Positions 2,379 to 6,079 of a DNA stretch of 12,645 nucleotides are shown here, piece by piece; positions within the stretch are counted from its first letter, which is position 1, and each line of letters opens with the position of its first letter. Below the pieces are notes generated by a model that did no database searches, was not told the DNA's origin, and was given only the letters and a program-made list of their open reading frames with translations. The DNA comes from a virus. Taxonomy: Duplodnaviria; Heunggongvirae; Uroviricota; Caudoviricetes. Both the position numbers and the translations under genes were made by a program. The stretch lies in the IMG/VR virus record IMGVR_UViG_2778261591_000019; one strand, given 5' to 3'.

Positions 2379-2408
2379 CGTGTAATATGTACACGCCTTT
2401 TGTTCTTC
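2379..2408 (-). terminator. Weak hairpin plus T-rich tract between the mnt-like gene and the membrane-protein gene
   Basis: CGTGTA-ATATG-TACACG stem-loop (2379-2395) flanked by T-rich sequence; only a 6-bp stem. Confidence 0.25.
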
Positions 2409-2840
2409 CTATTCAGGTATTTCAATTCCAAAACCATCTGCATCCCATGAGTTTTCACAGATGATGTAACCTAGTTCATTGAGCTTATTAAATGTTTTTT
2501 CAAAGATGATCTGGTAATCATTATCTGCAAGTGATTCCAGTTCAAGGTCATTAAGGTTTATATAAAAACTTGTATGTCCAAGTGTTATTTTCTTATTGAT
2601 TTCATTAAAAGTTCTTTTGAAAATAATATTTGATATTTCATGCCGTGCATTGTTTGCAATAATTTTTGCTTCATAAGCAGAAATTACGTCATCTTCATGA
2701 ATATCTTTCAGAAAGCTGGTGTCAAGACGTTGTACTATTTCAGCGTTCATTGAGCGCTTATTGGCTTTTGCAGAAATTTCTATTTTTTCTTTTACTTCAA
2801 CGGGAAGTCTGATCCTTAGTTGTGGATCTTCTCTGCTCAT
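2409..2840 (-). CDS. mnt: Mnt-like ribbon-helix-helix repressor with an extra C-terminal domain of about 60 aa
   Basis: N-terminus MSREDPQLRIRLPVEVKEKIEISAKANKRSMNAEIVQRL matches the P22 Mnt RHH motif (DP..F..R.P.EV.EK....A.AN.RSMN.E..Q). ATG at 2840 preceded by a GGTGA SD. Divergent from the arc-like/ant genes as in P22 immI. 143 aa versus 83 aa for P22 Mnt. Confidence 0.75.
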   Translation of the reverse strand: MSREDPQLRIRLPVEVKEKIEISAKANKRSMNAEIVQRLDTSFLKDIHEDDVISAYEAKIIANNARHEISNIIFKRTFNEINKKITLGHTSFYINLNDLELESLADNDYQIIFEKTFNKLNELGYIICENSWDADGFGIEIPE

Positions 2841-2870
2841 GTTCTTCACCAAATATTGAGTTACTTGCAA

Positions 2871-2960
2871 TGATTGAAGTATGCCTCACCGTGTGCTTGA
2901 CATCAATGACGCACGGTGTGACAATTGTTTTGCCCCACGGTGGGGCTAAGGAGATATGAA
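2871..2960. promoter_or_regulatory. Divergent promoter/operator region (Pant-like promoter with RHH operator half-sites)
   Basis: -35 TTGACA (2897-2902), 17-nt spacer, -10 GACAAT (2920-2925), reading toward the arc-like gene. Heptamer CACGGTG at 2912-2918 and 2936-2942 and its reverse complement CACCGTG at 2887-2893, about 24-25 bp apart. SD TAAGGAG at 2947-2953. Confidence 0.45.
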
Positions 2961-3128
2961 ATGCAAAAAGCAAAAGAGATGTGTCAACGACGAGTTCGTT
3001 TTCCGGACGATGTGAAGTTAGCTATTGAAAGAAATGGCGAAAAAGAATGCCGAAAGTTCAATACAGAGATTATCTATCAGCTGAGGAAAGTGTATGGACT
3101 CACTGGTGAGAAGAATAGCGTGGCATAA
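2961..3128 (+). CDS. arc: Arc-like ribbon-helix-helix repressor (55 aa)
   Basis: ATG 2961 with strong SD (TAAGGAG, 7-nt spacing). 55 aa, similar in size to P22 Arc (53 aa). RVRFPDDVKLAI...NTEIIYQLRKV fits the RHH beta-strand/helix pattern. Immediately upstream of the antirepressor gene. Confidence 0.65.
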   Translation: MQKAKEMCQRRVRFPDDVKLAIERNGEKECRKFNTEIIYQLRKVYGLTGEKNSVA

Positions 3129-3200
3129 AACAGCGAAGCCCAACGGTGGCCAGACCGTCAGGGCTTCAGTATCGTAAAACTACGTATAGGAATTAACGAC
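3127..3200 (-). ncRNA. Predicted sar-like small antisense RNA across the antirepressor RBS/start
   Basis: Minus-strand promoter inside the first codons of ant: -35 TTGATA (complement of 3230-3235), 17-nt spacer, -10 TATACT (complement of 3207-3212). Minus-strand terminator: stem GAAGCCC/GGGCTTC (3135-3141 with 3161-3167) followed by a T-tract (complement of 3127-3134). Predicted length about 70 nt, as for P22 sar. Confidence 0.35.
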
Positions 3201-4145
3201 ATGACGAGTATAGCAACAGCGCTATCTACTATCAACGTGCCATTCCACGGCGCAGAACTTTATGTTGTCAATCACAACGGAGAACCGTACACCCCAATGA
3301 AACCTATCGTTGAAGGCATGGGTATGGATTGGGCTTCACAGTTTACGAAAATGAAGCAGCGGTTTAAAACCTGCATTGTGAAAATCACAATGCAGCTTCC
3401 TGGGGATGAACAGCGCCGTGAGATTATTTGTTTGGCACTTCGCAAACTTGCTGGCTGGTTGCAAACCATCAGCCCTAACAAAGTCCGCCCTGAAATCCGC
3501 GACAAGGTAATCCAGTATCAGGAAGAGTGTGACGATGTTCTCTACGAGTACTGGACTAAAGGCCATGTGGTTAACCCACGCAAAGCTAAAAAGGCGTTGC
3601 CGGGTAAAATAACCACTGAACAGCAGGAAGCCATTAAACAACTCGTCATGAGTCGCGGTCAGTCTCTGCCAAAAGAAAAACAGGCTAAGGCGATGATCAC
3701 CATGTGGTCGTCACTGAAATCTCATTTTGGCTGTTCGTACAAAGAAATTGATGAAGATCAATTCGCCGAAGCGTTGTCTCTTGTTGCTCGGGTTCCGCTT
3801 GAAGGGGAGCATCTCCCTGCTGGATCTGCATCAGAGAATGATGAAGTGGCAGTCAAGATGTTAGATGCGCTTCGTGAGGCAATTAAAACACAGACAAAAT
3901 GTTATGGTTATCCGCTGAAGCCCGGCTACCGCAGTCTGATTCATTCGCCGTCTGGTGTTCTCGGCCTGACGGAGAACTCACTGCTGATGAATCTGCTTAA
4001 CCAGTTACAGGACGACGGGCACGATGTATCGGGCGCGGCGGCGGAGCTGACCACCATGTTCTGCTACATCGTCGGTGTGAGCAAGTGCCTGCGTGATATC
4101 CAGACCCACGCGGAGTACATCAACGACAAGGCAGGGTTCTTCTGA
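3201..4145 (+). CDS. ant: Phage antirepressor (Ant); N-terminal AntA-type domain plus a C-terminal module shared with two other genes in the window
   Basis: 314-aa ORF directly after arc in the immI arrangement, with ATG 3201 and AGGA upstream. N-terminus VPFHGAELYVVNHNGEPYTPMKPIVEGMGMDW resembles antirepressor N-domains. C-terminal 77 aa are near-identical to the C-terminus of the 5121-5813 gene. Confidence 0.75.
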   Translation: MTSIATALSTINVPFHGAELYVVNHNGEPYTPMKPIVEGMGMDWASQFTKMKQRFKTCIVKITMQLPGDEQRREIICLALRKLAGWLQTISPNKVRPEIRDKVIQYQEECDDVLYEYWTKGHVVNPRKAKKALPGKITTEQQEAIKQLVMSRGQSLPKEKQAKAMITMWSSLKSHFGCSYKEIDEDQFAEALSLVARVPLEGEHLPAGSASENDEVAVKMLDALREAIKTQTKCYGYPLKPGYRSLIHSPSGVLGLTENSLLMNLLNQLQDDGHDVSGAAAELTTMFCYIVGVSKCLRDIQTHAEYINDKAGFF

Positions 4146-4169
4146 CAGAACGGCGGCACAGGGATGTGC
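3915..4169. repeat. Inverted repeat, left copy (3' end of ant plus about 24 bp downstream)
   Basis: Reverse complement of 5099-5353 matches 3915-4169 at about 95% identity by hand alignment (about 12 mismatches over 231 coding bp); similarity continues past the stop codons (CGGCGGCACAGGGATGTGC). Confidence 0.85.
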
Positions 4170-4196
4170 AAAACGGAACTATCGTGACATGTCACA

Positions 4197-4220
4197 GGCC
4201 GCTTTCGCGGCCTTGTTTTT
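4197..4220 (+). terminator. Rho-independent terminator downstream of ant
   Basis: GGCCGC-TTTC-GCGGCC hairpin (4197-4212) followed by TTGTTTTT (4213-4220). A 12-bp perfect palindrome GTGACATGTCAC lies immediately upstream (4184-4195). Confidence 0.6.
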
Positions 4221-4281: not shown

Positions 4282-4827
4282 TTATTCCTTCCATTTATCA
4301 GAAAAAAGATCTTCTTCTAAAGGCATTGGTTCTGTTTTTGTTTTCTCAAAGAATTGATAACTGATAGTGATTGCTTCCTCTTTAAACTCTTCTTGCTCAG
4401 TTATGTTGTGGGCATCTGCGTCAACAAAAAACATAACCAGCGCATCACGATTGTGATTTACCGAATAAACTAAAAAGCAATCACTTGTTGGTATGCATTT
4501 TACTTGCACAGACGCTATATTTTTCCATGCATCCCAAGATGATTTTTTACCAGTGTGTTTTTTATCACTATCTTCTGGAATATAGTCTTGGTTATCGACA
4601 TGAGTATGCCTGACATTTAGTTTAAGCATTTCTGTCGGACGAGCAAATGCAGCATCTTTACCAAGAGATGGATGGTATCCCGTTTTCCAATACTGGGTAA
4701 AGGCATCAGATACTTTCTTCAGCTCAAGATCAGATGCACAAAGGGCCGAGAAATTTTGCGTATGCAATACTCGACCCTTATATCTGACAATTTGATTTTT
4801 ATCATTCTGCGACGCAGACGAACTCAT
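4282..4827 (-). CDS. YafO-like toxin candidate (181 aa)
   Basis: ATG 4827 with AAGGA SD. By-eye similarity to E. coli YafO as I recall it: GKDAAF..P..LKLNVRHTHV versus GRDALY..P..IKFERVAHIHL, and FLVYSV...ALVMFFVDADAH versus HLVYCQ...WLLIAILKPEPH. The YafO sequence is from memory and unverified. Confidence 0.55.
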   Translation of the reverse strand: MSSSASQNDKNQIVRYKGRVLHTQNFSALCASDLELKKVSDAFTQYWKTGYHPSLGKDAAFARPTEMLKLNVRHTHVDNQDYIPEDSDKKHTGKKSSWDAWKNIASVQVKCIPTSDCFLVYSVNHNRDALVMFFVDADAHNITEQEEFKEEAITISYQFFEKTKTEPMPLEEDLFSDKWKE

Positions 4828-4981
4828 AATTTTCCTTATTGTTACGAGAATCAAAGAAAGCTCGGGATACGCGACTTGCGTGATCTTTTGTCATAGTAAC
4901 TTTTACGTACTCTACGCTTCCATTGAAAGAACGTCTTGCGGCAGCTTGCGCTCTACGCATCTGCAATTTTTCGTTTCGCAT
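4802..4981 (-). CDS. Small basic ORF (59 aa) overlapping the start of the toxin-like gene; candidate cognate antitoxin/regulator
   Basis: Not in the supplied ORF track (below size cutoff). ATG 4981 preceded by GAGG SD; stop TGA at 4804-4802 overlaps the downstream gene start by 26 nt. Promoter-like -35 TTGGTT (complement of 5031-5036), 17-nt spacer, -10 TGTAAT (complement of 5008-5013). Product MRNEKLQMRRAQAAARRSFNGSVEYVKVTMTKDHASRVSRAFFDSRNNKENYEFVCVAE. Confidence 0.35.
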   Translation of the reverse strand: MRNEKLQMRRAQAAARRSFNGSVEYVKVTMTKDHASRVSRAFFDSRNNKENYEFVCVAE

Positions 4982-5098: not shown

Positions 5099-5353
5099 GC
5101 ACATCCCTGTGCGCCGCCCGTCAGAAGAACCCTGCTTTGTCGTTGATATACTCCGCGTGAGTCTGGATATCACGCAGGCATTTGCTCACACCAACGATGT
5201 AGCAGAACATGGTGGTCAGCTCCGCCGCCGCGCCAGATACGTCGTGCCCGTCTTCCTGTAACTGGTTCAGCAGATTCATCAGCAGTGAGTTCTCCGTCAG
5301 GCCGAGAACACCAGACGGAGAATGAATCAGGCTGCGGTATCCGGGCTTCAGTG
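5099..5353. repeat. Inverted repeat, right copy (3' end of the second antirepressor gene plus flanking bases)
   Basis: See left copy; the two copies encode nearly identical C-terminal peptides KPGYRSLIHSPSGVLGLTENSLLMNLLNQLQ(D/E)DGHDVSGAAAELTTMFCYIVGVSKCLRDIQTHAEYINDKAGFF on opposite strands. Confidence 0.85.
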
Positions 5354-5813
5354 GGGCGCTGTAGGTTTTGTTCTCTATCTTCATTGCCTGCATTACTGCT
5401 GACGCCGTGGCGTTGGCTACCTGGTCGGCAACCATCTTTATGCGTTCTTCCTGCGGGAGCGAGTTTTTAATGTAACTTCCAGTGCGGCGGATCTGAGGAA
5501 GAACCTCACCTGTAACCCATTCAAGAAATCTGAATGCTCTCGTTCCCTCTGTCATTGCCTCTTTGCAACGCAGAATAAGGATGTAGAGACCTGATTCTGA
5601 AACGATGGATAGTTCTTGTATTCCACCAGGGGTCTGTATTGAATACAGCCCCTTTTTGTTCCAGCCTTTTTTATCAAGTTTTCTCGCTTGTGTAACATCA
5701 ATATTCAAAGCATTGCACACATCTTTGGTGACAAACCAAGGTTCTCCGTCAATCATGAACATACGGATCTGGCAGGATGACTCAAAGGAAAAGATGGAAG
5801 GTTTGGTATTCAT
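5121..5813 (-). CDS. Second antirepressor: Bro-N-type N-terminal domain plus the shared antirepressor C-terminal module (230 aa)
   Basis: ATG 5813 with AGGTG SD. N-terminus IRMFMIDGEPWFVTKDVCNALNI...SESGLYILILRCKEAMTEGTRAFRFLEWVTGEVLPQIRR has classic Bro-N/antirepressor motifs. C-terminus as in ant. Confidence 0.8.
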   Translation of the reverse strand: MNTKPSIFSFESSCQIRMFMIDGEPWFVTKDVCNALNIDVTQARKLDKKGWNKKGLYSIQTPGGIQELSIVSESGLYILILRCKEAMTEGTRAFRFLEWVTGEVLPQIRRTGSYIKNSLPQEERIKMVADQVANATASAVMQAMKIENKTYSAPLKPGYRSLIHSPSGVLGLTENSLLMNLLNQLQEDGHDVSGAAAELTTMFCYIVGVSKCLRDIQTHAEYINDKAGFF

Positions 5814-6079
5814 GGCGATCACCTTTGTAGTTAGGTTAATCACCACCGCTGAGACCAATCAGATGGTGGTGAACTGTGCAGAGTTGGTCTTACCGGCTAC
5901 AAAGGAACCCGGCGCACCTTTCGGTGCCCCCACACAGCCCACCATAGAATAGGTGCGCTTTACACATAAAAAAACCGCTTATGCGGCATATGTGCCTCTG
6001 TAGTAATCCGGGAGACCAATCCCGGCACTGGATTTTGCCAGTGCCCGGTTACTATGGCACAGGATGAGTGCGATGTAAA

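Follow-up and report, generated by a model that had tools for sequence, protein, structure and literature searches.

The window, which is the whole stretch of DNA analysed here (12,645 nt of the Caudoviricetes record IMGVR_UViG_2778261591_000019 in IMG/VR), contains on its minus strand a homologue of the sar antisense RNA of phage P22, located within an mnt-arc-sar-ant cassette of a TL-2011b-like E. coli prophage. By analogy with P22, this RNA very probably blocks the synthesis of the antirepressor Ant by pairing with the ribosome-binding site of its mRNA. It is a divergent, previously unannotated member of a known family and involves no new mechanism or principle. The sar family was reportedly described in 1987 and is curated in Rfam. 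Coordinates of the features are compiled in Table 1.

Table 1. Features of the sar cassette and of the adjoining promoter region in the window.
Feature	Position	Strand	Basis
mnt-like ribbon-helix-helix repressor gene, 143 aa, divergent from arc	2409..2840	-	Arc domain in Pfam (E 1.1e-14); P22 Mnt 32% identical (E 3e-14)
TTGACA-17-GACAAT between CACCGTG/CACGGTG half-sites (candidate Pant promoter)	2897..2925	+	Promoter scan; putative function
arc-like small repressor gene, 55 aa	2961..3128	+	BLASTP to P22 Arc: 33% identical across 40 aa (pairwise E 4e-5)
sar RNA as predicted (G3200 to U-tract, ca. 71-74 nt)	3127..3200	-	Rfam RF00262 match; start from P22 geometry
UUUU tract, about 3 nt after the stem (GCUG between), tail GCUGUUUU	3127..3130	-	Sequence; tail in terminator scan
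Stem-loop II, terminator hairpin: 14 pairs, one bulged U, loop CUGGCC	3134..3168	-	Fold; terminator scan
Stem-loop I: 5-bp stem GUCGU/ACGAU, 20-nt loop with anti-Shine-Dalgarno UUCCU (3192-3188)	3171..3200	-	Single-sequence fold
ant Shine-Dalgarno AGGA, 9 nt before ATG, target of sar loop I	3188..3191	+	Complementary to sar nt 10-13
ant, antirepressor gene, 314 aa	3201..4145	+	Pfam P22_AR_N, E 9.6e-45; 39% identity to P22 Ant, E 8e-41
Psar extended -10, TGC-TATACT, ant codons 3-5 (AGT ATA GCA)	3207..3215	-	Promoter scan; P22 comparison
Psar -35 hexamer TTGATA, 5/6 vs TTGACA, ant codons 10-12	3230..3235	-	Promoter consensus scan

Genomic context of the sar cassette

Positions 2400-4200 of the window are 95.6% identical to Escherichia phage TL-2011b. 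The arc-ant junction (2840-3300, counted as present when at least 80% of it was covered) was found in 38 of 5426 complete E. coli genomes and was chromosomal in every case, which, together with the identity to TL-2011b, indicates that the window is part of a TL-2011b-like E. coli prophage. The genes are arranged in the same order as in the P22 immunity-I (immI) region (mnt-like, arc-like, ant), and Pfam searches and BLASTP against P22 proteins identified homologues of all three flanking the sar element, each with an intact reading frame. No Pfam match was obtained for the arc-like ORF (2961-3128, plus strand), and its counterpart in the TL-2011b record is named 'Arc-like repressor'. The arc stop codon TAA (3126-3128) and the ant ATG (3201) are separated by a spacer of 72 nt. 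Rightward of the cassette lie a GDSL-lipase tailspike-like gene, holins, an endolysin and a DUF2514 (PF10721) gene.

Assignment to the sar family

A whole-Rfam scan of the window returned three matches over their gathering scores. One of them is sar (RF00262), which matched 3132-3199 on the minus strand (model positions 1-68) with 45.2 bits against a gathering score of 43 (E 1.1e-6). The RF00262 model was not built from the window. A search with the sar-family covariance model had been put forward as a check in the initial annotation, which was made from the sequence alone, and its outcome is positive, with a margin of just 2 bits over the gathering score. As a positive control, the model scored 97.8 bits at the annotated P22 sar; scores for other phages were 84.6 (CUS-3), 77.3 (S.Kent 1-2-1), 72.4 (Kapi1), 69.4 (PhiR12_1), 61.7 (Emek) and 44.8 bits (TL-2011b). 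PhiR5_1 (34.0 bits) and Klebsiella phage ST899-OXA48phi17.1 (27.1 bits) are below the threshold. Such sub-threshold relatives keep the same promoter and two-hairpin layout, and the Rfam sar model under-detects the family. No ncRNA is annotated in the TL-2011b record or in the RefSeq E. coli genome carrying it, and a literature search for transcript evidence on TL-2011b or TL-2011b-like prophages found none.

Extent and structure of the predicted RNA

The start of the RNA was placed by applying the distance between the -10 element and the annotated start in P22 to the window. At the -10, the window has the same TGCTATACT as P22, then six bases (the last three CAT) and then G, and this P22-like spacing puts the predicted start at G3200, the base immediately preceding the ant ATG; the 3' end would be at about 3127-3130. 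A transcript of about 70 nt had been proposed, which agrees with the 71-74 nt predicted from these ends. The element at 3127-3200 is antisense within the arc-ant spacer, and its 5' end adjoins the ant start codon. It had also been claimed that the RNA covers both the Shine-Dalgarno sequence and the start codon of ant. The first part holds, since the predicted sar is fully complementary to the arc-ant spacer, including 3188-3191; the second probably does not, because with a predicted start at G3200 the ATG lies outside the duplex. A duplex ending at position -1 is still within the ribosome footprint. No other site matching the loop-I segment of sar, and thus no second target, was found in the window.

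Folded alone, the 74-nt RNA has a free energy of -23.7 kcal/mol and forms two elements joined by a 2-nt linker, with a modest z-score of -2.56 (4 of 200 shuffled sequences fold as well). P22 sar folds into the same two-element architecture. Minimum free energy folds of the window, P22 and the 21 variants described below all place the anti-Shine-Dalgarno in the loop of a 5' hairpin, which is followed on the 3' side by a GC-rich terminator hairpin. The hairpin and following U-tract that had been noticed in the arc-ant spacer correspond to the 14-bp hairpin at 3168-3134, followed by GCUGUUUU; the terminator scan picks up the inner part of this stem-loop II, and the UUUU tract (3130-3127) overlaps the arc stop codon. 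How efficiently sar terminates, and where precisely it ends, is uncertain because the U-tract is short (4 U) and GCUG lies between the stem and the U residues. The complementary plus-strand hairpin was considered as a terminator after arc and ruled out, since no U-tract follows it on that strand. In stem-loop II the window and TL-2011b (L001) differ by a single U/G polymorphism, at window position 3141 in the 3' arm, which distinguishes two sub-lineages; it shifts the bulge by one position and keeps the pairing.

The Psar promoter within ant

Psar consists of TTGATA (3235-3230) and TATACT (3212-3207) on the minus strand, 17 nt apart, matching the consensus at 10 of 12 positions, and the TG at 3215-3214 provides an extended -10. 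It lies within the first codons of ant (codons 3-12) and is directed away from this gene, exactly as the initial annotation had described it. Counts of promoter-like sites (2, compared with 1.2 +/- 0.9 in shuffled sequences) and terminator-like sites (2, compared with 0.6 +/- 0.7) are insignificant on their own, in contrast to the Rfam match and the fixed promoter position in related loci, which are significant; the case therefore rests on comparative evidence.

The comparison draws on 91 sources: the window itself, annotated regions from ten phages and a further 80 viral contigs obtained by Ant protein retrieval. The motif TGnTAnnnT is present at a fixed position in 91 of the 91 related loci, which represent 21 distinct promoter regions. 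A lack of promoter conservation in related immI regions had been named as a refuting observation, but the extended -10 was recovered at the same place in every locus. The -10 and the end of the ATG complement are six bases apart in 19 promoter types and three bases apart in two. The -10 hexamer is TATACT in 16 types, with TAAGCT, TACAAT, TAAAGT, TAAACT and TACACT represented once each. The -35 element is conserved less than the extended -10 across the related loci, being TTGATA or TTGATT in 16 of the 21 distinct promoter regions.

The N-termini of Ant vary among loci (M-x-S-I-A, S-S-L-A, S-I-V-A and N-T-L-A). Across 34 translated sequence variants, the Ile, Leu or Val codon always ends in TA (ATA, TTA or GTA), and Ala is encoded by GCA throughout. 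These invariant codon bases supply the TG, T-12 and A-11 of the promoter on the opposite strand. ATA accounts for only 2 of the 19 Ile codons in the window's ant. Because the promoter bases are kept through differing amino acids and uncommon codons, this pattern points to selection on the DNA signal, beyond selection on the protein alone. Psar sits in coding sequence, and protein constraint may explain part of its conservation.

Comparative structure and modularity of sar elements

We built our own covariance model (R1) from ten phage sequences. The window was included in the training set, and its R1 score of 78.9 bits was discarded as evidence because it is circular. R1 matched 73 of the 91 sources on the minus strand adjoining the ant start and missed 18 at E < 0.01. 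On inspection, the missed loci differ in stem-loop II but retain the promoter and the two-hairpin layout; they are diverged members and no counter-examples. The Ant loci missed by R1 carry the labels L039-L055, L080, L081, L085 and L086, with the element at positions of about 1428-1500 on the minus strand.

In an alignment of the 73 matches (30 distinct rows), 90.9% of cells form standard pairs, compared with 85.5 +/- 0.7 after column shuffling (0 of 500 shuffles reach the observed value) and 36-44% when partners were slid by 1-3 columns; these pair counts are inflated, as a covariance-model alignment is fitted to the structure. Changes on both sides occur in 8 of 21 pairs; stem-loop I accounts for five of these eight, out of its seven stem pairs. 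When the 21 distinct variants were folded singly, a set that included types from the 18 loci missed by R1, every one gave a 5' hairpin with the anti-Shine-Dalgarno in the loop, followed by a GC-rich hairpin. Stem I occurs as GUCGU/ACGAU, GUUGGU/ACUGAC, GUCAAUA/UGUUGAU, GUCGGU/GCUGAC and GUCAGU/ACUGGC across the variants. In stem-loop II the basal pairs GAAGCC/GGCUUC hardly vary, and covariation among variants is seen in the upper stem. A de novo consensus from 17 diverse variants (MAFFT and RNAalifold) recovered only the base of stem-loop II; stem-loop I was lost because its registers differ and it was misaligned, and the de novo consensus was replaced by the covariance-model alignment and single-sequence folds.

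Stem-loop I, stem-loop II and the 3' tail reassort independently among phages. In the window, stem-loop I is of the CUS-3 type, and stem-loop II belongs to a type that is also present in a Klebsiella phage. The cassette also occurs in other settings. In PhiR5_1, an arc-sar cassette lies in the nin region and the downstream gene is annotated Rha (L006, 2498-2570); in the lambda-like PhiR12_1 it lies between tail genes L and K (L008, 2473-2546); and in Salmonella phage Emek it is upstream of a gene annotated KilA-N (L005, 2499-2572).

Comparison with known systems

Mechanistic details of P22 were taken from its GenBank annotation and from secondary papers. The P22 record NC_002371 places sar at 15021-15090 on the minus strand, its promoter at 15097-15125, its terminator at 15021-15058 and the ant ATG at 15091. 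Similar to the element in the window, P22 sar is antisense, fills the arc-ant spacer and has its 5' end adjoining the ant ATG. Both share the extended -10 TGCTATACT in ant codons 3-5 at the same distance from the ATG, the two-hairpin design with the anti-Shine-Dalgarno in loop I, and the terminator stem base GAAGCCC...GGGCUUC. The two differ in stem-loop I (GUUGGU/ACUGAC in P22, GUCGU/ACGAU in the window) and in stem-loop II, the upper half of which is replaced in the window, with a 6-nt loop and a bulge. The tail is GCUGUUUU in the window and AACUUUAC in P22, and the -35 of the window (TTGATA, 5/6) is closer to the consensus than that of P22 (GTGTTA, 3/6). The flanking proteins are just 32-39% identical to those of P22, which is a Lederbergvirus, whereas the window belongs to a TL-2011b-like prophage with an E. 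coli host.

In P22, sar base-pairs with the ribosome-binding site of the ant mRNA, so that Ant is not made (PMC7968456, PMC11016777). It supplements Arc and Mnt within the 'ant moron', which is itself located inside the late operon (PMC2629481, PMC12111858), and small-RNA sequencing of P22-infected cells shows sar reads (PMC13397905).

The promoter and stem-loop I of CUS-3, a phage of E. coli K1, are near-identical to those of the window, with two loop bases differing; unlike the window, CUS-3 has a P22-type stem-loop II and a different upstream gene. Its record labels the sar-like element just 'bsq2; boundary sequence'. The C4 antisense RNA of P1/P7 (RF01695) is, like sar, a small phage RNA that pairs at the translation start region of an antirepressor-type gene and thereby shuts off its expression, but C4 and its target are encoded on one strand, contact is made via short a'/b' segments, and neither sequence nor structure relates C4 to sar. 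IS10 RNA-OUT and lambda OOP are likewise short, stable, hairpin-rich cis-antisense RNAs with a promoter inside the 5' end of the target, without sequence relationship to sar. RNA-OUT occludes the ribosome-binding site as sar does, but overlaps the start codon; OOP differs from sar in overlapping a 3' end and acting through RNase III.

Proposed mechanism and alternative explanations

In the mechanism that we favour, ant codons 3-12 contain a sigma-70 promoter of the extended -10 type that would fire leftward. Transcription would start at G3200 and end once past the GC-rich hairpin where arc stops; the product, ~72 nt long and folded into two stem-loops, would be perfectly complementary to the spacer of the arc-ant mRNA. 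The large 5' loop would show UUCCU opposite the ant Shine-Dalgarno, and pairing would block the ribosome-binding site and thereby prevent Ant synthesis. In this scheme, homology, geometry, the conserved promoter and the conserved, covarying structure come from the window and its relatives; transcription, the termination point, pairing and repression are modelled on P22. The RNA would matter most for transcripts beyond Arc/Mnt shut-off, such as read-through from the surrounding late operon. Control of ant of the P22 sar type, which the initial annotation had suggested, is supported by the Rfam match, the mnt, arc and ant homologues, the P22-matching layout and the promoter in 91 of 91 loci, and by this analogy the window's sar most likely blocks ant translation.

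Another explanation, which we consider improbable, is that the sar-like transcript acts mainly by convergent transcription against Pant and late read-through, through interference or duplex processing, rather than by occlusion of the ribosome-binding site. Psar faces the candidate Pant (2897-2925, plus strand) at a distance of about 300 bp, and sar leaves the start codon uncovered. However, the anti-Shine-Dalgarno is kept in the loop of stem-loop I in 21 of 21 variants despite many changes in the stem, which fits selection for RNA-RNA contact at the ribosome-binding site, and repression in P22 has been described as base-pairing with the ant mRNA (PMC7968456).

It is very improbable that no antisense RNA is made and that the spacer instead represents a hairpin of the plus-strand arc-ant mRNA or a recombination 'boundary sequence', the promoter hexamers being a by-product of the conserved Ant N-terminus. 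The CUS-3 annotation of the spacer agrees with this reading, as do BLAST homologies to other phages that start or end within or beside the element, and promoter-like sites in the region are no rarer than expected by chance. Yet the TG, T-12, A-11 and T-7 of the promoter are kept through varying amino acids and uncommon codons, the plus-strand hairpin has no following U-tract, and the homologous P22 RNA is experimentally established. The least credible explanation is a decayed remnant, an immI-homologous cassette whose divergent sar no longer terminates or pairs productively: the score of 45.2 bits against 97.8 for P22, the bulged stem, the 6-nt loop and the tail GCUGUUUU could be read in this way, but the promoter is nearer to the consensus than that of P22 (-35 5/6 against 3/6), the same stem-loop II variant is found, still paired, at two further loci (L004, L033), one in a Klebsiella phage and the other an unrelated ant locus from a metagenome, the one-base difference from TL-2011b just moves the bulge, and the mnt, arc and ant frames are all intact.

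Neighbouring regulatory elements and annotation of ant

Three CACCGTG/CACGGTG half-sites (2887-2893, 2912-2918 and 2936-2942) bracket the candidate Pant promoter and are candidate Arc/Mnt operators. A perfect hairpin, GCCCCAC-G-GTGGGGC, is located at 2932-2946, where the arc-ant mRNA is predicted to begin.

Small RNAs and an antirepressor-type gene form a second module at 5121-6079 on the minus strand, about 2 kb from the sar cassette. Rfam matches to isrK (5968-6044, minus strand, 74.7 bits) and to the C4 antisense RNA (RF01695; 5862-5949, minus strand, 78.6 bits) are accompanied by a promoter-like TTTACA-17-CATAGT (6079-6051, minus strand) and an ORF with a Bro-N domain (5858-5121, minus strand). 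The prophage thus carries a P1/P7-type c4 module besides the P22-type sar module, and the same two-module arrangement is present in TL-2011b. Neither the isrK nor the C4 RNA is annotated in the records examined. Between both antirepressor modules, an ORF at 4282-4854 (minus strand) matches the YafO family of type II toxins (Pfam E 9.1e-6, just over the threshold); a small ORF annotated in TL-2011b overlaps its start on the same strand and may encode an antitoxin.

In E. coli OkiPb01683 (NZ_AP042515; L091, 6398), the RefSeq start of ant is placed 36 nt downstream, at a GTG equivalent to window position 3237, giving a CDS of 909 nt. The ATG at 3201 has the Shine-Dalgarno sequence and the conserved M-x-S-I-A N-terminus. 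In this genome at least, the RefSeq start lies too far downstream and hides the overlap of promoter and coding sequence.

Implications

The annotation gained here is a complete P22-type immunity-I switch, with a predicted RNA regulator, in the TL-2011b-like prophages of pathogenic E. coli. The Rfam sar model, in addition, misses diverged relatives of sar. A tentative extension, which we regard as possible but rather unlikely, is that the sar family is wider and more modular than the Rfam model and that its loop and stem variants are mutually non-cross-reacting specificity classes that diversify immunity. If this is true, such classes would decide whether or not a prophage can silence the antirepressor of a relative that superinfects it.
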